Counted from the first letter of the stretch, positions 7,500 through 30,916 are shown. The stretch is 64,000 nucleotides of DNA from Catalimonadaceae bacterium JC749 (GCA_021730635.1 JAJNNC010000007.1:25100-89099), one strand, 5' to 3'. Numbers and translations are program-made. The notes: generated by a model from the letters alone, not told the origin.

Positions 7500-7500
7500 T

Positions 7501-9603
7501 ATGAGAAAGGCAATGATCTATATTTGTTGGATTGGCTGGTGTCTGCTGCTAGGATTATCAGCCTTTGCCCAAAGCGAAAACAGCGAAGTTGAAGAGGTCA
7601 AACCGGCTATCAAGGTTATAGCGCGTCCTTTATCTGATTCTATTATTTTACGCTGGGCACCTACCACGCCTACTGCCTGGGAATATGCCAATCGTTACGG
7701 CTATGTGGTGGAACGTGTAACACTCCTGCGAGATCAGACGGTGCTGGAACACCCCGAATCCATTGTTCTCACCCCAAAACCTGTAAAGCCTTTACCCTTA
7801 GCCGAATGGGAGTCTTTAGCGAATACCAATGATTATGCAGCCATTGCCGCCCAAGCGCTGTATGGAGAAACCTTCGAGCTGACTGAAAATTATGCCAGTG
7901 ATATCGTACAGGTAGTCAACAAGGCCCGTGAACTTACCTCTCGCTTTTCTTTTGCCCTGTTCGCAGCTGATCAGTCTCCAACAGTGGCTCATGCTTCTGC
8001 ATTACACTTTACCGACACATCAGCCAGGAAAAACGAAAAATACGTTTATCGTGTCTACACACCCGTACCGATTGCTGTCCTGAAGATTGATACTGGCTAT
8101 GTCTATGCTGGTATAGCAGATTATCAGGAATTGCCAGTGCCCATTGAACTTTCTGCCAAATTCTCGGATCGTTCTGTTCAACTGCACTGGAATGGAGAAC
8201 TCTTTCAGGACATATTTACCAGCTATTTGGTAGAACGCTCTGATGATGAAGGTCAAACTTTCCAACAAATCAACCAGGTACCTTTTGTCAATACCTCCCA
8301 GAAAGCGACAGCATCAGCCTATATTTATAAATCAGATACACTTCCTGAAAATGACAGAAAGTTCGTCTACCGTGTCAGAGGAGTAACACCTTTTGGTGAA
8401 ATAAGCCCGCCTTCAGAAATGGTAGAAGGAGTTGGCATGATGACATTGAAAGCAAACCCTGCCATTGTTGGCGCAGAAGTGATTCATGATCAGATCAACA
8501 TCCGGTGGGAATTTGATACCACTTATCAACAAGCGATTACTGGTTTTCAACTGCTGAGATCAGGGCAAGCTCAAGGTCCCTTTGACATCGTAGTGTCACC
8601 CATTGCGGCTGATCAGCGCGAAGTGATAGACGCACAACCACAAATTGCCAACTACTATAAAATAACAGCTATAGGAAAGTCAGGTGATAATAAATCCTCC
8701 TTCCCTTTTCTAGCCCAACTTGTTGATAGCATTCCTCCTGAAACGCCTATAGGTTTGACAGGCATTATGGATTCCAGTGGGGTCGTTACCTTACACTGGA
8801 TACCTAACCGGGAAGAAGATCTGTTAGGCTACCGGGTGTATAGAAGTAATTTTGCAGATCATGAGTATACACAGATCACGGTCAATCCGACGCAAGACAC
8901 TGTATTTTACGATACTTTAACGGTAAAAACGCTCACTAAAAAAGTATATTATAAAATTACGGCAGTAGACCAACACTACAATCCTTCTGGCTTCTCTATT
9001 CCTCTTTCCCTGTCACGACCTGATGTTATTCCACCCGTGTCTCCGGTATTTAGTTCTGTAAAATCATCAGAGGAGGGTATAGCCTTAACCTGGGTGAATA
9101 GCAGCAGCAAAGATGTCATGAATCATCTGCTTTATCGCAGAAAAACTAGTGATACCTCCTGGAGATTAATTGCACTCTTTGATCCTGATGATACAGTACA
9201 ATTGTATCTGGATGAGGAAACTTCTTCTACCCATTACTATGAATATACGATGATTGCAGTGGATAGCAGCCACCTGGAGTCTACTCCTTGTACCCCTGTA
9301 AGTGCTAAAAGGATTGACCGGAGAATCCGGAAAGAAGTCAAAGAATTTTATGCATTGGCACAACCCGCAGAAAAACAGATAGCGCTTTCTTGGAATTACA
9401 AACCAGAAGGAGTAGAGCGCTTTCTGCTTTACCGCACGCAAGAGGATCAACCTATTTCACTCTACACTTCTCTGCCAGCCGATCAGCAACAATTTTCAGA
9501 TCGCAAACTCACTATCAATACCTACTACCGCTATAGAATCAAAGCAGTGTATAAAGACGGATCGCATTCTTCATTTAGTAAAGAAATAGGAGTGCATTAT
9601 TAA
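7501..9603 (+). CDS. Secreted protein with multiple fibronectin type III-like repeats (~700 aa)
   Basis: Signal peptide MRKAMIYICWIGWCLLLGLSAFAQ. Recurrent FN3-like modules are present (LRWAPTTPTAWEYANRYGYVVERV; YRVRGVTPFGEISPPS; YYKITAIGKSGDNKSSF; YYKITAVDQHYNPSGFS; YRYRIKAVYKDGSHSSFS). Track ORF starts at TTG 7492; the ATG is at 7501. Confidence 0.6.
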   Translation: MRKAMIYICWIGWCLLLGLSAFAQSENSEVEEVKPAIKVIARPLSDSIILRWAPTTPTAWEYANRYGYVVERVTLLRDQTVLEHPESIVLTPKPVKPLPLAEWESLANTNDYAAIAAQALYGETFELTENYASDIVQVVNKARELTSRFSFALFAADQSPTVAHASALHFTDTSARKNEKYVYRVYTPVPIAVLKIDTGYVYAGIADYQELPVPIELSAKFSDRSVQLHWNGELFQDIFTSYLVERSDDEGQTFQQINQVPFVNTSQKATASAYIYKSDTLPENDRKFVYRVRGVTPFGEISPPSEMVEGVGMMTLKANPAIVGAEVIHDQINIRWEFDTTYQQAITGFQLLRSGQAQGPFDIVVSPIAADQREVIDAQPQIANYYKITAIGKSGDNKSSFPFLAQLVDSIPPETPIGLTGIMDSSGVVTLHWIPNREEDLLGYRVYRSNFADHEYTQITVNPTQDTVFYDTLTVKTLTKKVYYKITAVDQHYNPSGFSIPLSLSRPDVIPPVSPVFSSVKSSEEGIALTWVNSSSKDVMNHLLYRRKTSDTSWRLIALFDPDDTVQLYLDEETSSTHYYEYTMIAVDSSHLESTPCTPVSAKRIDRRIRKEVKEFYALAQPAEKQIALSWNYKPEGVERFLLYRTQEDQPISLYTSLPADQQQFSDRKLTINTYYRYRIKAVYKDGSHSSFSKEIGVHY

Positions 9604-9609
9604 AAGCTT

Positions 9610-12600
9610 ATGTGGGGAATTATACGACATAGCATCTTCCTGGTCTTTGCAGTGGTCTTCAGTTTTCACAGCCAGGCTCAGCATTTTCCTGTACAAGTTG
9701 GTATCCAACTGCCCCCTCCTCATTCATTGTATCTTTCCGATTATGTAATACCTGGTAGTCACCGGCTTTCTGTGAACATCCTTCTTACAGAACTGGATCG
9801 TATCAATTACCCGGTTAGACTGCGAATCACTATAGAAGGAAATGGTATCCATATGCGTACCCGCGAAGGTTTTATGCCATCTCCTATGGAATTGCAGGGA
9901 GGTATGCTGGAAGTTTTGTCCGCTTCAGAGCTGGCCCCCTATTTTGATCCTCTCAATCTGCAAGTAAGTGGAGCAAACCAACATCAATTCACAAGAACAA
10001 CCCAGTTGCCTGAAGGATTTTACCGTTTTTGTATAGAAGTGTTGGATTATTATACGGGCACAACGGTCTCTAACTTTGCTTGTGCCAATGCATGGTTAAT
10101 TCTTAATGAACCACCCATCATCAACGTACCTCAAGCCAACGCCAAAGTCCGCGCACAGGAACCACAGCACTTAATATTTCAATGGTCACCCCGGCATATG
10201 GGAAGCCCGAATGCTGGTTTTACAACAGAGTATGAACTAACACTAGTAGAACTATGGCCTTCCAACCGTGACCCAAACGATGCTATACGCAGTACACCTC
10301 CTGTCTTTCAGACTACTACTTTGAATACCACTTTCATCTATGGAGTTGCTGAACCTGCTTTGCTGCCTGGACGTGCCTATGCTTTCCGGGTAAGGGCAAA
10401 AAGTATGGCAGGCGTAGATAAGCTAGCGCTATTCAAAAATCAGGGATATAGTGAAACTATTATGTTTACCTATGGGGAAGAATGTAGCCAACTCCAGCAG
10501 GTACAAGCGGAAGCTTTGAGTGCCACCCGTATTAAACTATCATGGCCCTCTGCTCCAGTCCATACCGCTTACATAGTCCGCTATAGGGAAGCCGGTAGAC
10601 CTCGTGCTCACTGGTTTGAAGAAACTACCTACCTGAATGATTTTACAATCAATTCTTTGAAACCTGATACTGAGTATGAATACCAGGTGAAAGGACTATG
10701 CGGTACAGTGAATGGAGACTACACCCATAACACTAGTATCCGTACTTTATCCCGAACAGAAAATGAACTGGTATGTGGCAAACCTTTTTCATCTTATGAC
10801 CTAAGCAATCCACTGTTACTGAAACTACTTTTCATAGGCGACTATGTATATGCTGGCGACTTTGATGTACAATTAACGGAAGTATGGGGTAGTAATGGCT
10901 TATTTTCAGGAGAAGGTATTGCTGAAATGCCCCTGTTGAATATGGCCAGAGTCAAAGTTCGCTTTGAGGGCATACATGTCAACACAGACTACCGCCTCAT
11001 TGACGGAAATATTTATGCGCTGACTGACCCATCTGGCAATGGTATTCTGAATTTGGATGAAGAAAGCATAGTCAAAGTCAAAGAGAAGGTACCAGAAGGA
11101 ACTGTTGATAAAAATGCAAAGGCAATCACCATACCCTATTTTGTAGATTCAGTATATGTCAATGAGCAAGGACAGATTACAGTTGTTGACACGCTTGGAA
11201 AAGAAGCACTTTATAAACAGGAAACTCATGAAAAGACAGGAAAGAAGAAAGATACGCATCTGACCGATAGCAGTGGCAAGCGTTGGTCAGTTGATAAAGA
11301 AGGTAATGTATCCGAGACAGAGACCAACAATAATGCTGATGCTACTGCCCAGGAAAAGCTTCCTGCTGACACTTTACCTGCATTGCAGAAAGCACCTCTA
11401 TTAGTGGAATTTACCTCCGACGAACATCAGCGACAATACGGGTACGATCCACCCAGAGAAAACTATGCACCCGTCTTTTATCCCACACAATCGCTATTAG
11501 GAGAAACCTTTCCTATAGGGTACAAAGCCCTGTCCAATGGTCGACCAGAATACTTAACCGCTCAATGGCAAGGTGCCGACAGTTTGAGTAATTACATCAC
11601 TTATCAGGCAGGCAGTTTCATGGTCAATACTTCCGGACAAGCAAGAGAAGGTAAACAAAGTCTGACCCTAATTGGCCTGGGTGATCAAGCAGAAGAACAG
11701 CTAACGGCTTATCAGAAAATCATCAATACTGGGGGCAAGGAAGAAGAAGTCATCACAGGTGCGCTTCACCTGAGCAGCTATGACCCTATCTTGGAACAAC
11801 TTGTCATAATTCCGGTAAACGACATTCACAATCCCTATTCTGTTACCCATCTGCAAAACAAACTGACTGACATATACTCCCAGGCAGTCGTCAGTTGGCA
11901 GGTGACTGAAGAAACAGCACTTCAAATCAACTGGGATGAAAATGGAGATGAGAAAGTGGATGATGGATTTAGTGGAACCTTCTCTAATTACACCCTGGAG
12001 ATGAAGAATATCCTGAAGGCGTACAAGAAGGTAAAAGGTTTTGATGATGACAAGTATTACCTCTTTCTGGTAGCAGGCAGTGAAAGTGGCCAGAAACAAG
12101 GCTATATGCCTCGTAAACGACAGGCAGGTTTTATTTTCCTGGATGCTAACAAAAGCGAAGACGAATTCCTCACTACCATAGCCCATGAATTAGGACATGG
12201 TGCCTATCGCCTGGAACATATTTTCAAAGAGAAAGGCAGCACCCCAGGGCAGACTGATAATCTGATGGATTATCGTGGAGGTACTTTTCTGCACAAGTAC
12301 CAATGGGATTATATTCACAACCCTATTCATATGATTGCCCTTTTTCAGGATGATGATGACGGCGCTTATGTTTCTGAAACTTTTGCCCAGGAGGTAGGGA
12401 GGCTGATCAACTTTATTAAATGCGGTGTTCAGAGAAACAAACCTGTAGTTGACGTCTATTATGGATACCACCGTTACGATATCCCACTCAAAGATATTCT
12501 GGCTGTATTAGATTTTGGCAATAAAGGATATTTAGCCTCAGACGCATTTAAAGAAACCAAACTGCATGTGGGCATTAGCGATGGTTTACCAGGATCCAGC

Positions 12601-14715
12601 TTTTTCTTTGGCTATAAAGAAACTCAGCTGAAGATAGGACAAGCTAAATATCCACATACGTATGGGTTATTCATTCCTGCCGTTCATGGGAACATCACTT
12701 TCAAAGTACCTGACGACACAGACCCCAAGACAAAAGAAAATATTTATAGATGGCTTTTACAGGAAACAGGACTTGATTATACCCATTCTTATAAAGCATT
12801 CAATGTTAACAAGGTCCTAGACTGGAAGGCTGAAGATATCTTCTTATTCTCTTATTGTGAGCTGGAACAATTTGACAGGTCAAGCAGAGAAAGACTTCTT
12901 GTAGACCTTCTTGACGAGCAGGAAGATTATGTAGGTCAGAATAAAGACACCTATCAAAAAGTGTTGCTCAATGTATTAAACACCATTCCTGCAGCGGATA
13001 AAACACACTTTTATAATCTGTTTTTAAGAAACCCACAATGGGTCAGAACGCTCTACCAGGGAGTTTCTGCTGAGAACAAACCTAAACTAGTAAAAGTATG
13101 GCTTGCCTTATGGACAGAACATTATCAGAACCATAAGCCCAACATTAGCTCTTCAGGGAAATTTATCATTACCAATAATATTTTTGGAAATGCCAGCGAC
13201 CTAGCTGTCATAAAGGATGACGGCAGGATTTTGTTTGCAGAACCCTACCAACACGGAAAAACGAGAGCCCCTATCTCCCTGCTCATCTCCCCTTTTGATC
13301 CTGTTTATCTCTACAAACCAGAGGTCGATGCAGATAAACCCTTTACCACCTTACCCGCCATAGCAGCAAAACTGTTCATTGACCAGCAACATAGCCAGAC
13401 ACTGGAAGATTTAGGATGGACGGCCATAGAAGCAAGCTTGTATACTGTAGGGATGGGTGAGGTATGGACAGGATTACGAGGTGCGGCGGCTGCTATGGAG
13501 TTAGGAGGTGTCGCCTCCCGTAAATTTCTGCTTAACAGCGCCCGAACGAGTTTAGGGTTCGCTGATATTGCCGCAGGCATCACAACCGGATTTTGCGAGG
13601 ATTATGCAGACAGTAAATTTTGTGCCGTCTGGCAAGAGTACCAATTTTATATTGATTTAGGATTACTTACAACTTCAGTAGCGGATGGGTTGTATAGCCG
13701 CTTACGTAGCGAATATAGCCATTTACATAGTGAATATAGCGAGGTAAGCGATGAATTGACCGATGCCCAGCGTATCTATCTGGAAGAAGAGTTGGGGTTG
13801 GTTTCAGATGGGGGAAGTGTAGCCAAAGCAGAGAATCATCTAGCAGCATTTACAGGTAAAATAACCAAAGGGGGAAACAACCTGCTTGACATTCCTTCAC
13901 CCGTTGGGCAATTCAGACAGCTAAAAGGGAAAAACGGAAAAATATATAGAGCAGCAGATTTTTGGAAGCAGCGCCATGAAGATTTTGTACATTACATAAG
14001 CCAGGATGGTAAGTACTATATCAAACACGATCCTATTACAGGAAGGATGTTATTTTTGGAGATTGAAAGTCAAAAGTTTTTAGGTTATTCCTTGGATGAA
14101 GCAAAATTTATCAAAGGCAATTATGATAAATTTCTAACCAGTCTTAAAACTATTCATGGTTTACCTGGGGGTTTGAAAGTTATAAAACTTAAAAACGGAG
14201 TTACTATTATTCTAAGTGATGATAAAGCCATCGTAATGCTTGGGAAGTATAGACCAAATGATATACCAGGTATAGCAGGCGAAGTAGGAACAGATGACAT
14301 TATTGAAGATCTTTCAATTTTAAAAAATTATTCTTTTGCTGATAATGGATTCGAATTACGCCCAGGAAGTCTACATGTTCTAAATATCCCGGATGGCTTG
14401 GTAGACGGAAAAATGAGAACCTGGGAAACTTTTTTTGAAGATTTTAACAAAGAACTTTTAGATTTAGTAATTAAAAACCCCTCAAAAGCTAAATTTGTAT
14501 TAGTAACTTATCCATATGATGAACTGATGTTTACATGGAAGAATGGCAGAAAAGATGTAAATATTAATAATGGTTTATTTATCCCAAGTGGATATGCCAA
14601 AGAACTTAAATATTTGAAGGAAAATGGCATAACTAAAATTCATTTGATAGACGGAAGTCTATTTGATTTGAATCAAATAAATTTAGATAACATGAGTTTT
14701 GACTGGACAATTTAG
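9610..14715 (+). CDS. Giant secreted multidomain protein (1701 aa) with central HExxH zincin-like motif and compositionally distinct C-terminal domain; putative polymorphic toxin
   Basis: Signal peptide MWGIIRHSIFLVFAVVFSFHSQAQ. N-terminal FN3-like segment (TEYEYQVKGLCGTVNGDY). IAHELGHGAYRLEHIF at nt ~12181-12230. The last ~800 nt are markedly AT-rich compared with the rest of the gene. It is followed 12 nt later by the paralog array. The 3' end is partially duplicated at 17590-17672. Confidence 0.6.
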   Translation: MWGIIRHSIFLVFAVVFSFHSQAQHFPVQVGIQLPPPHSLYLSDYVIPGSHRLSVNILLTELDRINYPVRLRITIEGNGIHMRTREGFMPSPMELQGGMLEVLSASELAPYFDPLNLQVSGANQHQFTRTTQLPEGFYRFCIEVLDYYTGTTVSNFACANAWLILNEPPIINVPQANAKVRAQEPQHLIFQWSPRHMGSPNAGFTTEYELTLVELWPSNRDPNDAIRSTPPVFQTTTLNTTFIYGVAEPALLPGRAYAFRVRAKSMAGVDKLALFKNQGYSETIMFTYGEECSQLQQVQAEALSATRIKLSWPSAPVHTAYIVRYREAGRPRAHWFEETTYLNDFTINSLKPDTEYEYQVKGLCGTVNGDYTHNTSIRTLSRTENELVCGKPFSSYDLSNPLLLKLLFIGDYVYAGDFDVQLTEVWGSNGLFSGEGIAEMPLLNMARVKVRFEGIHVNTDYRLIDGNIYALTDPSGNGILNLDEESIVKVKEKVPEGTVDKNAKAITIPYFVDSVYVNEQGQITVVDTLGKEALYKQETHEKTGKKKDTHLTDSSGKRWSVDKEGNVSETETNNNADATAQEKLPADTLPALQKAPLLVEFTSDEHQRQYGYDPPRENYAPVFYPTQSLLGETFPIGYKALSNGRPEYLTAQWQGADSLSNYITYQAGSFMVNTSGQAREGKQSLTLIGLGDQAEEQLTAYQKIINTGGKEEEVITGALHLSSYDPILEQLVIIPVNDIHNPYSVTHLQNKLTDIYSQAVVSWQVTEETALQINWDENGDEKVDDGFSGTFSNYTLEMKNILKAYKKVKGFDDDKYYLFLVAGSESGQKQGYMPRKRQAGFIFLDANKSEDEFLTTIAHELGHGAYRLEHIFKEKGSTPGQTDNLMDYRGGTFLHKYQWDYIHNPIHMIALFQDDDDGAYVSETFAQEVGRLINFIKCGVQRNKPVVDVYYGYHRYDIPLKDILAVLDFGNKGYLASDAFKETKLHVGISDGLPGSSFFFGYKETQLKIGQAKYPHTYGLFIPAVHGNITFKVPDDTDPKTKENIYRWLLQETGLDYTHSYKAFNVNKVLDWKAEDIFLFSYCELEQFDRSSRERLLVDLLDEQEDYVGQNKDTYQKVLLNVLNTIPAADKTHFYNLFLRNPQWVRTLYQGVSAENKPKLVKVWLALWTEHYQNHKPNISSSGKFIITNNIFGNASDLAVIKDDGRILFAEPYQHGKTRAPISLLISPFDPVYLYKPEVDADKPFTTLPAIAAKLFIDQQHSQTLEDLGWTAIEASLYTVGMGEVWTGLRGAAAAMELGGVASRKFLLNSARTSLGFADIAAGITTGFCEDYADSKFCAVWQEYQFYIDLGLLTTSVADGLYSRLRSEYSHLHSEYSEVSDELTDAQRIYLEEELGLVSDGGSVAKAENHLAAFTGKITKGGNNLLDIPSPVGQFRQLKGKNGKIYRAADFWKQRHEDFVHYISQDGKYYIKHDPITGRMLFLEIESQKFLGYSLDEAKFIKGNYDKFLTSLKTIHGLPGGLKVIKLKNGVTIILSDDKAIVMLGKYRPNDIPGIAGEVGTDDIIEDLSILKNYSFADNGFELRPGSLHVLNIPDGLVDGKMRTWETFFEDFNKELLDLVIKNPSKAKFVLVTYPYDELMFTWKNGRKDVNINNGLFIPSGYAKELKYLKENGITKIHLIDGSLFDLNQINLDNMSFDWTI

Positions 14716-14726
14716 TTATATCAGCT

Positions 14727-15104
14727 ATGAAAACAGGATTTTACAGATCTCAGGTTGTTGAAGTGGAAGATAATTATGGCGGTGTAGTATATAAAAAAGC
14801 TGCGCACTATTACATCGCCTTTGTTGACTCCAACAACATATATATGATTCTTTCATCTTCAAAAGGTGAGCCTAAAATGTCTGTTTTATTATCATCTTCA
14901 GCATTGATGGATATTAAAGGATCTATTACGAAAGAGAATGAAATCACTGTTGAGATTACCTTTTACAATCCTTTCTTAAAAACCAGGGAAATATTTACAG
15001 GTAAAAAAGAAGGGGATAAGCTTTACTTGAAAGCGCATCGTGAAAACAAACCAGAAGAAATCTTTCTTGACGATGTTTTTGAGTATATCGGCACAGGAGA
15101 ATAG
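14727..15104 (+). CDS. Small paralog 1 of tandem family (125 aa); candidate cognate immunity protein
   Basis: MKTGFYRSQVVEVEDNYGGV...ITVEITFYNPFLKTREIFTGKKEGDKLYLKAHRENKPEEIFLDDVFEYIGTGE. It shares N-terminal (G.Y[RK]S..E.DNYG[GA]) and C-terminal (F.GK.EG..L.LK..R...PE.....YEY[IV]GT.E) motifs with 7 other ORFs in the array. Confidence 0.6.
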   Translation: MKTGFYRSQVVEVEDNYGGVVYKKAAHYYIAFVDSNNIYMILSSSKGEPKMSVLLSSSALMDIKGSITKENEITVEITFYNPFLKTREIFTGKKEGDKLYLKAHRENKPEEIFLDDVFEYIGTGE

Positions 15105-15121
15105 TCAGAAGCAATAACACT

Positions 15122-15520
15122 ATGAAAAAAGGACTGTATAAGAGCATCAGAGAGTCTAAAGGAGAAGACAATTACGGTGCTAATACCTTCACTGTTTACA
15201 TACGAAATTACTTACTATTTGTAGACAATGAGGTATTTAAATTTTCTATTAGTGGTTATAAGGAAAATTATGATGACCAAGAAGATTTAAGTAACCAACT
15301 AAAAAGTAATAAACATCCTTATCAAGGTCAGGTAGAAAGTTTTGATGAGAGTAAGATTAAATTTCATCTGATAGATAATTTCTTAGATGATAAGATCATT
15401 TTTGAGGGTAAAGCAGAAGGAGAGCGATTTCAGGTAAAGCGCTATAGAGTCTATAAGCCAGAAGCGATCATAGAAGAGACTTATGAATATGTGGGCACTC
15501 TTGAAGATCTTACCAGTTGA
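15122..15520 (+). CDS. Small paralog 2 (132 aa)
   Basis: MKKGLYKSIRESKGEDNYGANTF...KIIFEGKAEGERFQVKRYRVYKPEAIIEETYEYVGTLEDLTS. About 85% identical to the ORF at 18088. Confidence 0.6.
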   Translation: MKKGLYKSIRESKGEDNYGANTFTVYIRNYLLFVDNEVFKFSISGYKENYDDQEDLSNQLKSNKHPYQGQVESFDESKIKFHLIDNFLDDKIIFEGKAEGERFQVKRYRVYKPEAIIEETYEYVGTLEDLTS

Positions 15521-15585
15521 AAAAGATCAACCAATTGTATTAACAGACAAAATAGGGTTTGTCTGAACAAACTTGCTATACTTTT

Positions 15586-16020
15586 ATGAAAATAGGTATA
15601 TATAGAAGCATCAGAGAGTCTAAAGGAGAAGACAATTATGGGGCTAACGTCTTCACTATTTATAGACGCACTTACTTGGTTTTTATTGAAAATGAAGTGT
15701 TTAGCTTCTCCACCACCGGGTATAAGCATGATTTTGACGATCAAGATCAGGTAAGTAAACAACTAAAGAAAGCAAATGCAGTATTAAGGGATAAAGATTT
15801 TGTAATCCAGAATAAAATCTCTTCTCTTGAGGATGAAAATATCAAATTCTACTTAGTAGATAATTCTCTCCAAGACAAGATAATTTTTGAAGGTAAAGCA
15901 GAAGGTGAGCAACTTCATTTAAAACGTTACAGAGTTTCCCAGCCTGAAGCAGTCACAGAAAATACATATCAATACCTAGGCACATTGGAAGAAATGACCA
16001 GATTGTTTAAGGCGGATTAG
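15586..16020 (+). CDS. Small paralog 3 (~144 aa from ATG 15586; track ORF from 15559)
   Basis: MKIGIYRSIRESKGEDNYGANVF...IIFEGKAEGEQLHLKRYRVSQPEAVTENTYQYLGTLEEM. It is 100% identical to the ORF at 18525..18986. Confidence 0.6.
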   Translation: MKIGIYRSIRESKGEDNYGANVFTIYRRTYLVFIENEVFSFSTTGYKHDFDDQDQVSKQLKKANAVLRDKDFVIQNKISSLEDENIKFYLVDNSLQDKIIFEGKAEGEQLHLKRYRVSQPEAVTENTYQYLGTLEEMTRLFKAD

Positions 16021-16172
16021 AAGCTTTGATTGTTGCTGGAAACATATTAGTAAAAAGTAATCTGTTGCTTCTGTAAATCAAGAATAGATTTAATAAACCT
16101 TTTAATGAGATTAATTTCCAGCTCTTCAGGTAATCTTAAATAAATCAATTGATTCTTTGGAAGCTTTGATGA

Positions 16173-16610
16173 GTGAAGAAATTTTATTTCTTAAAAAGCC
16201 TGCTTTTATCTATTTACACCAATAAATTTCAAGTTATGATAGTGAAAAACGGGGTTTATTGTTCAATGCAAAAAAAGGAAACAGAAGAGGTTCATGGTGG
16301 TGTAACTTTACAAGACAGTTACTACCATCATATCTGCTTTTATTTTCCTGAAAACCTAGTTGGTTTTTATGGAGGTGGTAGGTTATGGTTTGCTCCTTAC
16401 TCCAGAAGAAACTTTAGATACAGCGGAGAAATTGGTAAGGTTGAAAATAATCAAATTGAATTTTCTATCATAGATCCTTACAACAATGATAAAATTCATT
16501 TTACTGGGATTGAAGAAGGAGATCAACTACAGATTAAAGCTGTAAGAAACAGTGAACCTGATAAAATATGGCTTGAAGGTACTTTTGAGTATATCGGCAC
16601 AGGAGAATAA
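16173..16610 (+). CDS. Small paralog 4 (start possibly ATG 16236)
   Basis: C-terminal family motif KIHFTGIEEGDQLQIKAVRNSEPDKIWLEGTFEYIGTGE. The N-terminus is divergent (MIVKNGVYCSMQKKETEEVHGG). Confidence 0.5.
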   Translation: MKKFYFLKSLLLSIYTNKFQVMIVKNGVYCSMQKKETEEVHGGVTLQDSYYHHICFYFPENLVGFYGGGRLWFAPYSRRNFRYSGEIGKVENNQIEFSIIDPYNNDKIHFTGIEEGDQLQIKAVRNSEPDKIWLEGTFEYIGTGE

Positions 16611-16725
16611 TTAACACTATGATCATATGATTGAAAGAAACTATCAAATTAAAAACGGATAATAGAACCATATTTCTCACAAGAATATCTGCAAAGTAAT
16701 ATTTGTTTTTGACACTTTCTTTCTA

Positions 16726-17151
16726 ATGTCTCTGTCAATCAAAATACCTAAAAATGGATTATTTAGATGCATAAAAGATACTTCTGTTGAGTATCATGCA
16801 TCTTCATTTTTTATTAATAAGGATGTTTCCTATTTAAAATTCCTTCCAAACGATCGCGCTATACTCTTTAGCAGAAGCGAGGGGAAGAGACCGGACGATG
16901 AAGATTATTTTAAATTGTATCATAAAATGGAATTACTTCAACAAGCTGAAACTTTTGAGATTTCAGCAGTTAGTTGGAATGACAATATTATCAAATTGCG
17001 ATCGCTTAGCAATGAAGCTTCCTACAATTGCATGCCTTCCTGTTTTATAGAATCTGCGTTAGCAGAAAAAAATATCACAGAACTACTGCTTGATAAGAAT
17101 CTCTCTAATGAAAAGCCTCATATCTATCAGTTTGTATCTGTAAAAAGCTGA
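16726..17151 (+). CDS. Small ORF in array, unrelated to the main paralog family (141 aa)
   Basis: MSLSIKIPKNGLFRCIKDTSVEYH... lacks the family N- and C-terminal motifs. Size, AT content and orientation match the array. Confidence 0.4.
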   Translation: MSLSIKIPKNGLFRCIKDTSVEYHASSFFINKDVSYLKFLPNDRAILFSRSEGKRPDDEDYFKLYHKMELLQQAETFEISAVSWNDNIIKLRSLSNEASYNCMPSCFIESALAEKNITELLLDKNLSNEKPHIYQFVSVKS

Positions 17152-17188
17152 CTTTTAAGTCCGAAACTTGTAACTCTAAGTTGATCAA

Positions 17189-17590
17189 ATGTTAAAAGAA
17201 TCTATATACCGAACTACAAAGGCACTTGAAAGCATAGATAATTATGGAGGTAATGCTTTCAAAAGATATGGCTATTGGTATTTATACTTTGACCAAAATA
17301 ATAAAGTATACCTATTTTCAACTGAAGGGTATGATCCTGAATTTGATGATAAAGAGCAGCTAAAAGAAATAGATAATCTCATAGAGTTTTCTCATCAAGG
17401 AGAATTAGTGGGTTTTTCGGATGGTAAAGTCAAGTTTTTTATCGACGAATTCTACTTTGGTAGGACTAATTATTCAGGAACTTTAAAAGGTAGCCAACTT
17501 AATTTAAAGCATTATAGAGAATCTGAGCCTGAAAAGGTAAATGATGAAATATATTTGTATATAGGCACTCCTGAAGATTATGTTTCATAG
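17189..17590 (+). CDS. Small paralog 6 (133 aa)
   Basis: MLKESIYRTTKALESIDNYGGNAF...NYSGTLKGSQLNLKHYRESEPEKVNDEIYLYIGTPEDYVS. Confidence 0.55.
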   Translation: MLKESIYRTTKALESIDNYGGNAFKRYGYWYLYFDQNNKVYLFSTEGYDPEFDDKEQLKEIDNLIEFSHQGELVGFSDGKVKFFIDEFYFGRTNYSGTLKGSQLNLKHYRESEPEKVNDEIYLYIGTPEDYVS

Positions 17591-17672
17591 ATTTTTTCAA
17601 CAAGTTCATTTGTTGGCCGGTGACTTACTTATCTGAAACAGATAGATTTAGATAACATGAGTTTTGACTGGA
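17590..17672 (+). pseudogene. Decayed remnant of the 3' end of the giant gene 9610..14715 (orphan toxin-tip fragment)
   Basis: 17619-17672 translates to ...YLKQIDLDNMSFDWTN*, against the gene C terminus ...NQINLDNMSFDWTI*. Weaker nucleotide similarity (ttcatttg.t.g.c.gg) extends back to ~17600, with in-frame stops. Confidence 0.55.
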
Positions 17673-17691
17673 CAAATTGACCATATTAGCT

Positions 17692-18069
17692 ATGAAAAAA
17701 GGATTTTACAGATCTCAGGTTGTTGAAGTGGAAGATAATTATGGCGGTGTTACATTTAATGTAAAAAGTTATTATCATCTGGGCTTTATTGATGAACAAA
17801 GAGTATTTTCAATATTGACTGAAGGTGAGGGTATCCCAAATTGGAGATTGTTTGAAAAAGAATTTGATAAACTTGATAATAAAGGAGCTATTACGATAGA
17901 GAATGAAAATACTGTTGAGATTACCTTTTACAATCCTTTCTTAAAAACCAGGGAAATATTTACAGGTAAAAAAGAAGGGGATAAGCTATACTTGAAAGCG
18001 CATCGTGAAAACAAACCGGACGAAGTCTTTCTTGACGATGTTTTTGAATATATCGGCACAGGAGAATAG
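17692..18069 (+). CDS. Small paralog 1' (duplicate of 14727 with diverged middle)
   Basis: MKKGFYRSQVVEVEDNYGGV...ITVEITFYNPFLKTREIFTGKKEGDKLYLKAHRENKPDEVFLDDVFEYIGTGE. The termini are near-identical to paralog 1 and the centre is different. Confidence 0.6.
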   Translation: MKKGFYRSQVVEVEDNYGGVTFNVKSYYHLGFIDEQRVFSILTEGEGIPNWRLFEKEFDKLDNKGAITIENENTVEITFYNPFLKTREIFTGKKEGDKLYLKAHRENKPDEVFLDDVFEYIGTGE

Positions 18070-18087
18070 TCAGTAATATTAAAAGTT

Positions 18088-18486
18088 ATGAAAAAAGGAG
18101 TATATAAGAGCATCAAAGATTCTGAAGGAGAAGACAATTACGGTGCTAACGCCTTCACTGTTTACATACGAAACTACTTACTATTTGTAGACGATGAGGT
18201 GTTTAAATTTTCTACCAGTAGTTCTGAAAAGAATTATGATGACCGTAAACATCTAAGCAAAAAGTTAATGAACAAAAAATACCCCTATCAAGGTCAGGTA
18301 GAAAGTTTTGATGAGAGTAAGATTAAATTTCATCTGATAGATAATTTCTTAGATGATAAGATCATCTTTGAGGGCAAAGCGGAAGGTGAGCGATTTCAGG
18401 TAAAGCGCTATAGAGTCTATAAGCCAGAAGCGATCATAGAAGAGACTTATGAATATGTGGGCACTCTTGAAGATCTTACCAGTTGA
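18088..18486 (+). CDS. Small paralog 2' (132 aa)
   Basis: Near-identical to 15122..15520 over the C-terminal two-thirds. Confidence 0.6.
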   Translation: MKKGVYKSIKDSEGEDNYGANAFTVYIRNYLLFVDDEVFKFSTSSSEKNYDDRKHLSKKLMNKKYPYQGQVESFDESKIKFHLIDNFLDDKIIFEGKAEGERFQVKRYRVYKPEAIIEETYEYVGTLEDLTS

Positions 18487-18551
18487 AAAAGATCAACCAA
18501 TTGTATTAACAGACAAAATAGGGTTTGTCTGAACAAACTTGCTATACTTTT

Positions 18552-18986
18552 ATGAAAATAGGTATATATAGAAGCATCAGAGAGTCTAAAGGAGAAGACA
18601 ATTATGGGGCTAACGTCTTCACTATTTATAGACGCACTTACTTGGTTTTTATTGAAAATGAAGTGTTTAGCTTCTCCACCACCGGGTATAAGCATGATTT
18701 TGACGATCAAGATCAGGTAAGTAAACAACTAAAGAAAGCAAATGCAGTATTAAGGGATAAAGATTTTGTAATCCAGAATAAAATCTCTTCTCTTGAGGAT
18801 GAAAATATCAAATTCTACTTAGTAGATAATTCTCTCCAAGACAAGATAATTTTTGAAGGTAAAGCAGAAGGTGAGCAACTTCATTTAAAACGTTACAGAG
18901 TTTCCCAGCCTGAAGCAGTCACAGAAAATACATATCAATACCTAGGCACATTGGAAGAAATGACCAGATTGTTTAAGGCGGATTAG
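18552..18986 (+). CDS. Small paralog 3' (identical copy of 15586..16020)
   Basis: Identical protein. Identical antisense ORFs in the track (15481..15762 and 18447..18728) confirm identity at nucleotide level. Confidence 0.6.
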   Translation: MKIGIYRSIRESKGEDNYGANVFTIYRRTYLVFIENEVFSFSTTGYKHDFDDQDQVSKQLKKANAVLRDKDFVIQNKISSLEDENIKFYLVDNSLQDKIIFEGKAEGEQLHLKRYRVSQPEAVTENTYQYLGTLEEMTRLFKAD

Positions 18987-19061
18987 CCTTATGGCATTGT
19001 TGAAATACCTATCCACCACAAAGCATCTATTCCATCAGCAATCTTAACCAAGTCTCCGTAC

Positions 19062-19083
19062 AGGGCAGTTTCTGCCTTTTTTT
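19062..19083 (+). terminator. Rho-independent terminator candidate after the paralog array
   Basis: aGGGCAG-ttt-CTGCCt followed by TTTTTTT (19077-19083), 76 nt after the last array gene. Confidence 0.5.
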
Positions 19084-19539
19084 AACTAACCGCTTCATCA
19101 TACATGCCCGCAGGTAAGCCAATTACCAGCCCTGCCCCCTTAATCATTCAGGAATTCTCTCACGTAATCATTTGCCCGGTCTGTCATTCTGCACAAAATA
19201 TCCCCCTGCTCCTATCAGGAGGTCTATCCTATCCGGTACATCATGCCTCTGCCCTTCTTCAGAGTAACACCCTACATCATTAAATAACCCGCTGCTCCGC
19301 TTTCAAACAAAGCCTAAGAGGTACGTTTCAGAGAAAAAAAGAAGCTTATGCCCCTTTCTTTATGTCGTTTCTGGCGCTTATCCTATCAGAAAATGCCTTT
19401 TCAACACTCTTTTTGCCCTTTCTAGCCACTCTCTGTACTTATCTCACATCCGTATTTATTTAATTATAATACTAAAAACTATAATTTAATTAATAATACA
19501 TTTGGCTGTTAGTTTTTCTAAAACAAAAACAACTATGCC

Positions 19540-20406: not shown

Positions 20407-20799
20407 ATGAGTAGTAACGAAAGCAGAAGAATCAGAAAGTACTGGGAACAGACAGGAGGACTTCTGATTGAAAAATTTCAGGCAACGCCCAAAAAGAAAA
20501 CCTCTAATAAGAAAAACGCCAATAAACAGATTATAGATGCTATCATCGTGCTGGGAGAAAAGAAGCAGATCCAGGAAGATGGCACCTATGACTTTACCGA
20601 TAAAGATATTATCATCGTCCAGACAGAAAAAACAGCCATAGGGATGCAATTGCTGGGAGAAGCTTTTTCAGCCCGGGAGAAGATGATGCCCTACCAGCCG
20701 CATTCTATCAAGACGGTAGCCATTTGTAGTAAACCCGATGAGGAAATGTTCCGCCTTTGCCAGGAGTTTGATATTGAAATGGTGGTGATTCCGGATTGA
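20407..20799 (+). CDS. Hypothetical protein (~130 aa from MSSNESRR)
   Basis: ORF 20362..20799 with a plausible ATG at 20407. No recognisable domain. Confidence 0.35.
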   Translation: MSSNESRRIRKYWEQTGGLLIEKFQATPKKKTSNKKNANKQIIDAIIVLGEKKQIQEDGTYDFTDKDIIIVQTEKTAIGMQLLGEAFSAREKMMPYQPHSIKTVAICSKPDEEMFRLCQEFDIEMVVIPD

Positions 20800-21075
20800 T
20801 TGAAGGATTGAAGGACTGAAGGTGTGAAGGATCGAAGGATTGATGGATTGAATGGAAGAGTGATAGAATGGTTGAAAGTGAAAATCATTGAATCCTAGCA
20901 TGTGAGTTTGCTTAAATGTGGGGATGTCTGCCTGTTTCTCATACCAATTAAATCATTCATGCATTTCATCGTTCATACATTCAATACATTCTCTGATACT
21001 TTCATTCCATCATTCACGCATCCTATCCTTCAGTCCTTCAATCCTTCAACCCTTCAATCCTTCCCTCATTTCTTT
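20798..21075. repeat. Inverted pair of degenerate 8-nt tandem repeat arrays (GAyTGAAG)n / (CTTCArTC)n between convergent genes
   Basis: Left arm 20798-20895: gattgaag gattgaag gactgaag gtgtgaag gatcgaag gattgatg gattgaat.... Right arm ~20955-21075: ...ccttcagt ccttcaat ccttcaac ccttcaat ccttccct, the reverse complement of the left arm. Spurious ORFs 20668..20901(-) and 20902..21258(+) derive from it. Confidence 0.7.
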
Positions 21076-22964
21076 GCTCCTTCAATAATCTGCTCCACCA
21101 CATCGGGATTCAGCAAGGTAGAAGTATCGCCCATATTGGAAGTATCGCCCTGGGCAATTTTACGAAGAATACGCCGCATGATCTTACCGGAACGGGTCTT
21201 GGGCAAGCCCGGCACAATCTGTATCTTATCCGGCTTGGCAATGGGGCCAATGATCTGACTTACCGTCTGCCGTATCTCATTCTTCAGGTTTTCTTCCGAA
21301 CGATCAGTCATATCGCAGATCACATAGGCGTAGATACCCTGTCCTTTGATCTCATGCGGATAGCCTACCACGGCTGACTCTATCACTTTCGGATGTTCAT
21401 TGATGGCATTCTCCACTTCCGCCGTGCCCATACGGTGACCGGATACGTTGATCACATCATCTACCCTTCCCAGAATGCGGTAATAACCATCCTCATCTCT
21501 TTTCACACCATCACCGGTGAAGTAGAGGTTCTTATAGGCAGAAAAATACGTCTGCCGGCAGCGTTCATGATCGCCGTAGGTAGTTCTTAAAATACCAGGC
21601 CAGGGAAACTTGATACAAAGATTACCCTGCACACTGTTGCCTTTCAGTTCTTTACCTTCACTGTCTACAATAATAGGCTGTATACCCGGTAGTGGCAAGG
21701 TGGCATAAGAAGGTTTGGTGGGTGTTACGCCAGGAATGGGAGAGATCATAATACCCCCGGTTTCTGTTTGCCACCAGGTATCCACCACGGGGCATTTGCT
21801 TTTACCCACATGATCGTGGTACCAGTGCCAGGCTTCTTCATTGATCGGCTCGCCTACCGAACCAATGACACGGAGAGATTCCAGCGAATAGGGTTTCAGT
21901 GGGTCAATGCCAAATGCCTGCAAGGCCCGGATAGCGGTAGGGGCCGTATAGAACTGATTCACCTTATATTTATCTACAATAGCCCAGAAGCGGCTGGCGT
22001 CCGGATGCGTAGGGGTTCCTTCATACATGAGCGTGGTGGCTCCTGCCAGCAACGGACCGTAGACAATATAGGAGTGCCCGGTAACCCAGCCTACGTCGGC
22101 GGTACACCAGTATACATCGCCGCCGCTGTATTGGAAGACATTCTGAAAAGTATACTCAGTATAGACCATATACCCACCACAGGTATGCACCACGCCTTTG
22201 GGCTTGCCGGTAGAGCCGGACGTATACAGAATGAAAAGCATATCTTCTGCGTCCATTTCCTCCGCTTTGTTTTCCTTGGAAACCCCTTGCAAGGTTTCAT
22301 GCCACCACAGGTCGCGACCCGCTTGCATGGTAACTTCATTTCCGGTTCGCTTCAGTACTATTACTTTCTCTATAGAAGAAGTGGAAGCCAGTGCTTCATC
22401 CACCACCGCCTTCACAGGGATGGTCTTAGGCCCCCGGAAGTTACCATCGGAGGTGAGCACCAATTTGGCCTTTGAATCGTTGATACGGTCGGCCAGGGAG
22501 TTGGCAGAAAAGCCGGCAAACACAACCGAATGTACGGCACCAATACGGGCACAGGCCAGCATAGCAACAGCCGCTTCAGGCACCATCGGCATATAAATAA
22601 TGACCCGGTCGCCTTTCGTAACGCCTTGCTTTTTCAGCACATTGGCAAACTGGCACACCTGCTCATACAGTTCGCGATAGGTAATAATGCGGTTATCCTC
22701 TTCCGGATTGTTAGGCTCCCAGATAATAGCCGGACGATCTCCGAGGGTAAAGAGGTGGCGTTCCAGTATATTTTCCGTGATATTAAGTTTTCCATTGATA
22801 AACCACTGCACGTCGGGTCCTTCAAAGTTCCACTCCACCACTTTGTCCCATTTCTTTCTCCAGAAAAAAGACTCAGCGATCCTGGCCCAGAATTCTTCCG
22901 GCTGTTGCACACTCTTCTGATACTCATGGATATAACCGCTCAGGGTTTGAATCTTATTACTCAT
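21066..22964 (-). CDS. acs: Acetyl-CoA synthetase (AMP-forming)
   Basis: 632 aa. N-terminus MSNKIQTLSGYIHEYQKSVQQPEEFWARIAESF. AMP-binding signature YTSGSTGKPKGV. Overall Acs-like architecture. Confidence 0.95.
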   Translation of the reverse strand: MSNKIQTLSGYIHEYQKSVQQPEEFWARIAESFFWRKKWDKVVEWNFEGPDVQWFINGKLNITENILERHLFTLGDRPAIIWEPNNPEEDNRIITYRELYEQVCQFANVLKKQGVTKGDRVIIYMPMVPEAAVAMLACARIGAVHSVVFAGFSANSLADRINDSKAKLVLTSDGNFRGPKTIPVKAVVDEALASTSSIEKVIVLKRTGNEVTMQAGRDLWWHETLQGVSKENKAEEMDAEDMLFILYTSGSTGKPKGVVHTCGGYMVYTEYTFQNVFQYSGGDVYWCTADVGWVTGHSYIVYGPLLAGATTLMYEGTPTHPDASRFWAIVDKYKVNQFYTAPTAIRALQAFGIDPLKPYSLESLRVIGSVGEPINEEAWHWYHDHVGKSKCPVVDTWWQTETGGIMISPIPGVTPTKPSYATLPLPGIQPIIVDSEGKELKGNSVQGNLCIKFPWPGILRTTYGDHERCRQTYFSAYKNLYFTGDGVKRDEDGYYRILGRVDDVINVSGHRMGTAEVENAINEHPKVIESAVVGYPHEIKGQGIYAYVICDMTDRSEENLKNEIRQTVSQIIGPIAKPDKIQIVPGLPKTRSGKIMRRILRKIAQGDTSNMGDTSTLLNPDVVEQIIEGAKK

Positions 22965-30857: not shown

Positions 30858-30916
30858 ACCGGATGCCAGCTACCATAAAAGAGTTGGGAGTGCGCATCCA
30901 GTATATTGTTTTAACT

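Follow-up and report, generated by a model that had tools for sequence, protein, structure and literature searches.

A block of 1.35 to 1.39 kb occurs twice downstream of a giant gene in the 64,000-nt stretch of DNA from Catalimonadaceae bacterium JC749 that was analyzed (the window), which raises the question of how the last codons of that gene came to stand a second time beyond it, together with copies of three small genes. Comparison of the two regions by blastn and MAFFT places copy A (toxin tip, g1, g2, and g3) at 14636/14666 to 16020 and copy B (tip scar, g1′, g2′, and g3′) at 17602/17631 to 18986, both on the plus strand, as are the other window features given below, with a constant offset of 2965/2966 nt. 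Both copies consist of the last 16 to 26 codons of the 1701-aa toxin gene and three small genes. Positions 14666-14785 match 17631-17750 at 90.8% identity, and 14910-16020 match 17875-18986 at 94.9% with one 1-nt gap. A weaker collinear match (14636-14654 with 17602-17620; 15/19) is above that of shuffled sequences (p = 0.0135), so the toxin-derived part comprises 16 solid codons and up to about 26. Thus, the repeat reported in the earlier note (approximately 14683-16020, recurring at approximately 17640-18986) is real, and the similarity reaches the toxin 3′ end and is not confined to the immunity-like genes.

The giant gene (9610..14715), characterized by domain scans and a homologue survey, encodes a protein with a signal-peptide-like N-terminus (by appearance; it begins MWGIIRHSIFLVFAVVFSFHSQAQ), a weak TANFOR match, Fn3, a conserved core that ends in an HExxH motif at about residue 920, a variable middle, and a C-terminal toxin domain. 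Among the matches listed, about 115 of 119 homologues align to residues 1 to ~920 only and have assorted C-termini, whose precomputed Pfam domains include AHH, WHH, EndoU, PT-HINT, Colicin-DNase, Endonuclea_NS_2, M23, and others. This combination of a shared core and varying ends bears out the proposal that the gene encodes a toxin. When the 1701-aa protein was scanned against Pfam and NCBIfam, the only matches were to Fn3 and, weakly, to metallopeptidases, with none to RHS/YD or VENN (PT-VENN). The match to the TANFOR profile TIGR02542 (residues 31-157 versus profile positions 7-138 of 145) is weak, with an E value of 0.034 and 14.1 bits against a curated cutoff of 67. Homologues 34 to 39% identical over ~900 aa, which JGI names as TANFOR, match it at 1e-8 to 1e-10, likewise below the cutoff, and many homologues carry the JGI name “TANFOR domain-containing protein.” The locus had been attributed to a system of the Rhs/CDI type; these comparisons instead assign it, as a predicted polymorphic toxin, to the TANFOR class of Bacteroidota, not to Rhs or CDI. 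That class was described by Jana, Salomon, and Bosis in 2020 (PMC7073777), and the window resembles it in the large protein with an apparent Sec signal, in an N-terminal region, weakly TANFOR-like and with Fn3, of the kind common to hundreds of Bacteroidota proteins, and in the swappable C-terminal toxin domain with a putative immunity gene directly downstream. It differs in that the C-terminal domain and the immunity family are unlisted there and lack a Pfam model, in that the match to TANFOR is subthreshold, and in the unusual size of the immunity array, which has nine genes and a repeat within it.

The last ~300 residues of the protein (residues ~1400-1701; 13807..14715), delimited by the homology boundary, family alignment A2, and a drop in GC content, constitute a previously undescribed putative toxin-domain family. 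Homology to this domain within unrelated N-terminal contexts begins at residues 1374-1405, and searches with it gave no Pfam, PDB-sequence, or PDB-fold match. The GC content drops from 45 to 49% to about 33% at ~13900 and is 31 to 35% across ~13950-18990, compared to 43 to 49% on either side. This low-GC block (~13.9-19.0 kb) is best explained as a cassette made up of the toxin domain and nine immunity-like genes. It finishes at a terminator-like hairpin with a T-run (19062..19078), 76 nt past g3′, which likely marks the end of the operon, although the hairpin is a consensus match only and such sites are no more numerous than in shuffled sequences.

Nine small immunity-like paralogues form the array 3′ of the toxin gene. 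In copy A, g1 (14727..15104; 125 aa), g2 (15122..15520; 132 aa), and g3 (15586..16020; 144 aa from the ATG and 60% identical to g2) are recognized by profile A1, as are g5 (16726..17151; 141 aa), the most divergent paralogue, and g6 (17189..17590; 133 aa); g4 (16236..16610; 124 aa) is placed by protein comparisons. Copy B adds g1′ (17692..18069; 125 aa) and g2′ (18088..18486; 132 aa), both intact in protein and codon comparisons, and g3′ (18552..18986), which is identical to g3 in protein and nucleotide comparisons. Both g4 (54% identical to P0140) and g5 (45% identical to the external P0168) are nearer to proteins from other genomes than to any array neighbor, which suggests that the array gathers distinct immunity subtypes. 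The small genes matched nothing in Pfam or NCBIfam, the family is small (~42 cluster representatives among 1.84 billion), and the window proteins tested were all singletons at 90% identity. At all loci where the sequence beyond the toxin domain can be read, the domain is followed by an A1-family gene (the window, L001/L013, L003/L011, L004/L015 with L005/L014, L006, L007, L017, L008, L012, and L016), and this linkage persists although the N-terminal contexts differ. Because the toxin domain is always followed by a member of the family, the small genes very likely encode its immunity proteins, the basis being co-occurrence. An AF2 model of g1 is an 8-stranded β-barrel (pLDDT 87), and the small proteins are best explained as predicted small cytoplasmic β-barrels serving as immunity proteins.

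Upstream of g1′ lies a noncoding remnant of the toxin’s last ~26 codons (17602..17680, solid from 17631 by blastn/MAFFT), which begins ~12 nt past the stop codon of g6. It reads ...LTYLKQIDLDNMSFDWTN* compared to ...SLFDLNQINLDNMSFDWTI* at the toxin end and has a 1-nt indel and, upstream, a TGA in frame, in agreement with the earlier description of a degraded, stop-containing remnant beside the second copy. The remnant aligns with the final 15 positions of the profile for the toxin domain, a match that alone is not significant (E = 2.4). Only 16 to 26 codons of a domain of ~300 residues are kept, and what had been called an orphan toxin module is thus a scar; copy B is a putative block of orphan immunity genes that bears this mark of the toxin tip and falls short of a complete “toxin C-terminus + immunity” cassette. 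A profile and alignment search found no further toxin-tip scars in the gaps at 16021-16235, 16611-16725, 17152-17188, and 18987-19539. An immunity promoter as the cause of tip retention was considered and rejected, as sigma-70-like sites were not above shuffles and TAnnTTTG, the Bacteroidetes-type promoter motif sought, is absent from both tips.

Identity between the copies is mosaic overall, with flanks that are 86 to 98% identical and centers of g1 and g2 at 39% and 69%. The toxin tip and the scar are 86% identical, followed by the 5′ end of g1 (98%), its center (14786-14909; 39%), its 3′ end (95%), the 5′ end of g2 (92%), its center (15248-15331; 69%), and positions 15332-15420 (97%). The remainder is a 599-nt run with 0 mismatches (15422..16020 = 18388-18986), a probable recent gene-conversion tract that reaches the end of the homology and that would have a P value of about 6e-7 if divergence were uniform at 3.5%. 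Homology stops exactly at the g3 stop codon, and the following 40 nt are 32% identical. The encoded proteins are 67% (g1/g1′), 85% (g2/g2′), and 100% (g3/g3′) identical. The earlier estimate for g2 (about 85%) was accurate, and the reported identity of g3 with its flanks holds for the protein and the upstream flank but not for the downstream one. Similarly, g1 does have near-identical termini, but its center is not the foreign replacement that had been supposed; it is an alignable homologue of the same length in both copies (41 codons) and is saturated (pS 0.65, pN 0.60).

Synonymous divergence between the copies falls into three classes in adjacent segments (dS of 0, about 0.1, and saturated), which requires gene conversion or recombination between them. 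Gene conversion after copy formation, already proposed from the graded divergence, is well supported by these classes and by the 599-nt perfect run. In the alignable flanking segments, dN/dS is 0.25 to 0.35, and the 3′ part of g2 has 0 nonsynonymous versus 4 synonymous changes; with all ORFs intact and flank dN/dS below 1, both copies appear to be maintained. A perfect tract of this kind is of the type that assemblers and polishers can mishandle, and polishing could in principle have exaggerated it. That the whole repeat is an artefact, one block having been assembled twice, is nevertheless the least probable of the explanations weighed here, given that the remaining differences are structured and codon-respecting, that the ORFs are intact, and that each copy has unique flanks. 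Sharp mosaic boundaries around variable centers of equal length might also be produced by programmed or selected cassette shuffling, with the distal block as a reservoir whose recombination with the other block would generate new immunity specificities by gene conversion of the pilE/pilS type. The position of the variable center, which maps to strand 4, a helix, and a loop of the predicted barrel, where model confidence is lowest and length varies most across paralogues, would suit such a role. However, there are just two copies per gene, a recombinase, repeat signal, or guide sequence was not found in the window sequence, and ordinary RecA-dependent conversion between diverged paralogues predicts the pattern equally, so that shuffling of this kind is very unlikely. 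DGR-like mutagenesis of the variable centers was rejected, all bases being affected and synonymous sites saturated.

The pattern of a tip scar followed by an immunity gene is also found in three unrelated loci. The scar in L004/L005 has 43 codons (E = 1e-15; 74% nucleotide identity to the resident tip) and precedes a frameshifted immunity gene, that in L007 has ~27 codons and precedes an intact second immunity gene, and L021 has a 36-codon toxin fragment (E = 2e-7) immediately 5′ of a g4-like immunity gene. The toxin genes of L007 and L017 are 92.6% identical as far as L007 position 10636; the last ~60 toxin codons and Imm1 of L007 are foreign relative to L017 (the tip is 74% identical), and the L007 remnant with Imm2 matches the toxin tip and sole immunity gene of L017 at 96.3%. 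Here, the alignment directly documents the displacement downstream of an older tip and immunity gene by an incoming toxin 3′ end and immunity gene. Rather than falling at a pre-toxin motif, the crossover in this pair is within the toxin domain, about 60 codons short of its end. A deletion model leading from L007 to L017 by recombination between the two tips was rejected, as L017 8634-8743 is not close to the L007 toxin 3′ end. Full orphans of the same toxin domain occur elsewhere, in L003 and in L004/L015, the latter being a toxin-domain and immunity cassette. Thus, the displaced orphan cassettes invoked in the earlier note are borne out by the displacement in L007/L017 and the full orphan in L004/L015, but the scar in the window is not by itself diagnostic, since an in situ duplication that breaks in the toxin 3′ end leaves an identical mark.

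For the window, we favor displacement of the distal block by a related cassette and later gene conversion, a history to which, as a whole, we give a probability of roughly 0.55; displacement is inferred here and is observed directly in the sister loci only. The distal block would formerly have adjoined the toxin gene directly. A related cassette (a toxin 3′ part and g1 to g6) would then have recombined in, with a homologous left crossover within the toxin gene and an illegitimate right join ~26 codons before the old stop, and the old tip and its immunity genes would have shifted downstream. The blocks would later have undergone at least two rounds of gene conversion with each other, the most recent of which homogenized 599 nt to the end of the homology, and the central segments of g1 and g2, presumably toxin contacting, would have remained anciently divergent. 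A single displacement event would account for the position of g4 to g6 between the copies and, if the donor and recipient arrays differed from there, for homology that breaks off precisely with the stop codon of g3. Against displacement, a scar upstream of g4 was not detected in the profile and alignment search, and a tip and scar that are 86 to 91% identical, with syntenic g1 to g3, would normally favor clean allelic replacement.

The closely similar, syntenic copies would be explained more directly by a segmental duplication in situ, in which unequal crossing-over or template switching copied either the tip with g1 to g3 or a 2965-bp unit of the tip with g1 to g6 that then lost g4′ to g6′, driven by selection for more, or more diverse, immunity. 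A duplication that takes in the first immunity gene needs a breakpoint within the toxin 3′ end, which would yield the scar, and the spacer from the tip stop codon to the ATG is 11 nt in both copies and 73% identical. The copies are not, however, arranged head to tail as a simple tandem unit but lie 1.58 kb apart, separated by g4 to g6, which have no second copy; a duplication would therefore need at least two events, one of which terminates precisely at the stop codon of g3. The 60% identity of g2 and g3 does point to earlier local tandem duplication in the array, and the abundant homology makes insertion of a foreign cassette with an illegitimate right end less expected. The saturated centers of g1 and g2, on the other hand, demand either that the duplication be very ancient or that additional donor sequences took part, and the sole case with a readable direction (L007/L017) is a displacement. 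Duplication in situ is a serious rival but a less probable origin than displacement. It is conceivable, if rather doubtful, that the unit of exchange in this toxin family is not the whole domain but, as seen in L007/L017, the last ~25 to 60 toxin codons and the immunity gene(s) that go with them.

Orphans in Rhs and CDI systems consist of displaced immunity genes with a 5′-truncated toxin piece, located beyond the toxin-immunity pair that is expressed, and result from recombination of incoming cassettes; homology permits later exchange with the main locus. Modules of this kind, located 3′ of rhs and cdi loci, were reportedly described by Poole and colleagues in 2011 and by Koskiniemi and colleagues in 2014. 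The window likewise has intact immunity genes (g1′, g2′, and g3′) distal to the toxin-immunity pair. However, an Rhs/CDI orphan retains an entire toxin domain and, upstream of it, a conserved handle, whereas the scar in the window, with its 16 to 26 codons, would be unable to re-arm the toxin, and the main toxin has no Rhs or CdiA sequence. Orphan immunity arrays of Bacteroidales (acquired interbacterial defense) hold a variety of immunity genes, for some of which the genome encodes no cognate toxin, evolve fast through recombination, and are often on mobile elements with recombinases, guarding against T6SS effectors. In contrast, the array in the window is joined to its own toxin gene, and no integrase or recombinase was found in it. 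The repeat is a recombination scar of a type known from other bacterial toxin systems and not a new kind of element.

The study that described the TANFOR class (PMC7073777) does not contain the word “orphan” or discuss orphan modules, and a literature search found no description of orphan or displacement modules in this class. With this locus, evolution through orphans and displacement, known from systems such as Rhs and CDI, extends to Bacteroidota toxins of the TANFOR class. The locus also defines a new, putative toxin-domain/immunity pair, the toxin domain of which has no known fold relative, and it offers a compact natural experiment on immunity specificity, as g1 and g1′, like g2 and g2′, differ chiefly in one central segment. 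If the unit of exchange is the size of the tip, immunity specificity would reside at the very C-terminal end of the toxin domain and in the variable center of the barrel, and the tip scars and conserved gene termini would be recombination handles that reshuffle tip and immunity specificities.

The 1701-aa giant gene (9610-14715) is followed by nine small same-strand ORFs of 124-144 aa, with g1 starting at 14727, g2 at 15122, g3 at 15586, g4 at 16236, g5 at 16726, g6 at 17189, g1' at 17692, g2' at 18088, and g3' at 18552. ORF listing and a repeat search, together with blastn and global MAFFT alignment, bear out the repeat of the giant gene's 3' tip plus three array genes described in the earlier note. 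Copy A (the tip and g1-g3, 14636-16020) is separated by g4-g6 from copy B (a tip scar and g1'-g3', 17602-18986), at a constant offset of 2965/2966 nt. In the blastn and MAFFT alignments, 14666-14785 matches 17631-17750 at 90.8% and 14910-16020 matches 17875-18986 at 94.9%, with a single 1-nt gap. An additional collinear match of 19 nt (14636-14654 and 17602-17620, 15/19) exceeds dinucleotide shuffles (P = 0.0135). Together with the aligned segments, it indicates that the toxin-derived stretch in copy B spans about 26 codons, of which 16 are well preserved. The remnant reads LTYLKQIDLDNMSFDWTN before its stop codon, and the toxin counterpart reads SLFDLNQINLDNMSFDWTI before its own. The remnant has a 1-nt indel, and an in-frame TGA is found immediately upstream.

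Identity between the copies varies strongly by segment: 86% for the tip; 98%, 39%, and 95% for the 5' end, centre, and 3' end of g1; and 92%, 69%, and 97% for the 5' end, centre, and distal part of g2. Positions 15422-16020 equal 18388-18986 over 599 nt with zero mismatches. The third gene had been described as identical including its flanks, which is true of the upstream flank only, as homology ends at the g3 stop codon. Likewise, g1 is a mosaic with near-identical ends, but its centre is a same-length, alignable, saturated homologue and not a foreign replacement; over the whole protein, g1' and g1 share 67% identity.

Nei-Gojobori counts separate three classes of synonymous divergence. Synonymous divergence is absent (dS of 0) from g3 and from the end of g2, the ends of g1 and g2 have a dS of about 0.09-0.18 (dN/dS of 0.25-0.35), and synonymous sites in the g1 and g2 centres are saturated (pS of 0.65 and 0.83). 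The 3' part of g2 has four synonymous and no non-synonymous changes. Since neighbouring alignment segments differ so much in age, recombination between the copies is required. The three dS classes and the 599-nt perfect run, which has a probability of about 6e-7 under uniform divergence, make repeated gene conversion between the copies, as proposed earlier, well supported, although assembly polishing could have inflated the perfect tract. Low dN/dS and intact ORFs point to maintenance of both copies. In g1 and g2, the variable centre corresponds to the strand 4/helix/loop part of the predicted barrel, the most length-variable region among all paralogues, and this part plausibly forms the surface that contacts the toxin.

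In the giant protein, Pfam matches are limited to Fn3 and a weakly scoring metallopeptidase motif. Homologues came from a search of 5.8 billion proteins followed by BLASTP of 120 listed matches. About 115 of those listed align to residues 1 to ~920 at 35-56% identity and diverge beyond, with C-termini that include AHH, WHH, EndoU, PT-HINT, colicin-DNase, NS_2 endonuclease, M23, M15, and GH108, among further toxin or lytic domains. Many listed homologues carry the JGI name "TANFOR domain-containing protein," and the named matches among them are from Cytophagia (Cyclobacteriaceae, Fulvivirga, Marivirga, Ohtaekwangia, and Chryseosolibacter). Jana, Salomon and Bosis 2020 (PMC7073777) described a class of polymorphic toxins that have a TANFOR domain at the N-terminus, a Sec signal, and variable C-terminal toxins, that are accompanied by downstream immunity genes, and that are suspected of being linked to T9SS. 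By sequence homology the giant gene is a TANFOR-class polymorphic toxin, although its own match to the TANFOR profile TIGR02542, covered end to end by residues 31-157, is sub-threshold (E = 0.034); homologues match it at E values of 1e-8 to 1e-10. The Rhs/CDI-type reading in the earlier note thus gives way to the TANFOR class; the locus lacks the defining sequence features of Rhs and CDI. At 12088-12279 (toxin residues 827-890), an HExxH motif (HELGHGAYRLEH), accompanied by weak M78/M43/metzincin matches, closes the region conserved across TANFOR-class homologues just ahead of the variable part (~residue 920). The motif recurs in the homologues P0003, P0018, and P0059, and this region may be a peptidase that processes or releases the C-terminal cargo.

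A 591-aa protein (982-2757) has no Pfam or NCBIfam match and is a conserved upstream neighbour of the toxin-domain gene in five other loci (L001, L002, L006, L008, and L013; 32-46% identity); it is a candidate accessory or export component of TANFOR-class toxins. Between it and the toxin, 2874-9603 holds two large genes, of 1541 aa and 703 aa (Fn3 is present in the shorter). Their homologues in L006 sit downstream of the toxin and immunity gene, and synteny is thus rearranged. A small 23S_rRNA_IVP (four-helix-bundle) gene lies directly 5' of the TANFOR-class toxin gene in the related loci L001 (4011-4469) and L002 (7821-8201), and this ORF is absent from the 9603-9610 gap upstream of the window toxin.

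Residues ~1400-1701 of the toxin constitute a separate family, with 11 homologues in one search and further ones in two others. This domain is found behind TANFOR cores with differing middle regions (L001/L013, L007, L017, and L008), behind unrelated N-termini (L006 and L016), and as stand-alone ORFs of 340-347 codons without an N-terminal part (L003/L011, L004/L015, and L005/L014). Across these contexts homology begins at residues 1374-1405, coinciding with a fall in GC from 45-49% to ~33% that persists to 18990, the exact end of the array. The toxin domain and the array thus form one compositionally foreign cassette. A terminator-like hairpin at 19062-19078, after the array, is a consensus match, with promoter and terminator scans not above background. 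Farther on, between the toxin locus and an acetyl-CoA synthetase-like gene, the stretch 20668-21258 contains a pair of 73-nt inverted-repeat arms (20797-20869 and 20996-21068) that are 73% complementary, and its ORFs on both strands read as low-complexity repeats (SILQSFNPS-like). On the minus strand, 25929-33085 encodes a 1642-aa protein with DUF3686, DUF7902, and AAA_5 and an adjoining 722-aa protein without a Pfam match; the pair looks like a large ATPase-based system, possibly related to defence or repair.

In each locus whose downstream sequence is readable, a member of the A1 family, defined by a profile of the nine small proteins, comes directly after the toxin domain. We call these putative immunity genes because they are co-inherited with the toxin domain across different N-terminal contexts; the toxicity of the domain and the immunity role of the small genes are inferred from this context. 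Just 42 of 1.84 billion cluster representatives match the A1 profile at E ≤ 1e-3, which makes the family rare. AlphaFold models of both the toxin domain and the small protein are confident, and both families are new. In L001, the immunity gene and a second, truncated one are followed by a direct-repeat block (9949-10786; 72-368 nt, 82-100% identical). The first immunity gene of L008 begins at an unusually large distance (~600 nt) downstream of the toxin stop codon, and the gap holds two 116-nt direct repeats (8732-9147; 89% identical); of the three immunity genes in L008, one is frameshifted.

Copy B is an orphan block of immunity genes that bears a toxin-tip scar. It is not a strict orphan module of the Rhs/CDI type that had been suggested, which would include a whole toxin domain. 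Only 16-26 of ~300 toxin-domain codons are left, and thus it cannot supply a new toxin. The pattern of tip scar and immunity gene recurs in three further independent loci. The order in L004/L005 is a TANFOR-core-related protein plus an Imm49 gene, a complete orphan toxin-domain ORF and its immunity gene, a 43-codon tip remnant (E = 1e-15; 74% nucleotide identity to the resident tip), and a frameshifted immunity gene. L021 carries a tip fragment of 36 codons (E = 2e-7) immediately 5' of a g4-like immunity gene, and no toxin-domain body precedes the fragment. In L007, a remnant of ~27 codons lies between the first and second immunity genes. Internal toxin-domain fragments (profile ~167-264) alternating with a partial immunity gene in L010, L019, and L020 (a Fibrobacter MAG and metagenome contigs) indicate decayed modules outside Bacteroidota as well.

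The toxin genes of L007 and its sister locus L017 are 92.6% identical, and the gene order is toxin-Imm in L017 and toxin-Imm1-scar-Imm2 in L007. The scar and Imm2 of L007 match the L017 tip and Imm at 96.3%, whereas the last ~60 codons of the L007 toxin and Imm1 are foreign (tip, 74% identical). A deletion in the reverse direction, from L007 to L017, is excluded, since nothing in L007 closely matches L017 8634-8743. This comparison indicates that the old tip and immunity gene were displaced downstream by an incoming segment of toxin 3' end plus immunity gene, and, as read from these two sequences, such displacement demonstrably occurs in the toxin family.

By parsimony and analogy with L007/L017, we consider displacement the probable origin of copy B (probability about 0.55). 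The ancestor would have been toxin-tip'-g1'-g2'-g3'-terminator, and a related cassette (toxin 3' part-tip-g1 to g6) would have entered through a homologous left crossover and an illegitimate right join ~26 codons ahead of the old stop. A single event of this kind would explain the scar, why g4-g6 separate the two blocks, and why homology breaks off precisely at the g3 stop, the donor and recipient arrays having presumably differed from there onward. The close similarity and synteny of the copies are accounted for more directly by in situ duplication, for which the array offers an earlier local precedent (g2 and g3 are 60% identical). That origin would need at least two events, one with its endpoint at the g3 stop codon, and we regard it as possible but somewhat doubtful; the chance of any remaining explanation is small. 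Both g4 (54%) and g5 (45%) resemble proteins of other genomes more closely than they do any array neighbour, so the array gathers distinct immunity subtypes.

In how it works, the locus resembles other polymorphic toxin loci that have orphan immunity genes, and a new kind of system is not among its novelties. Besides the toxin-domain and immunity families, the new points are the evidence that TANFOR-class loci bear full orphans as well as tip scars, and the crossover within the toxin domain seen in L007/L017.
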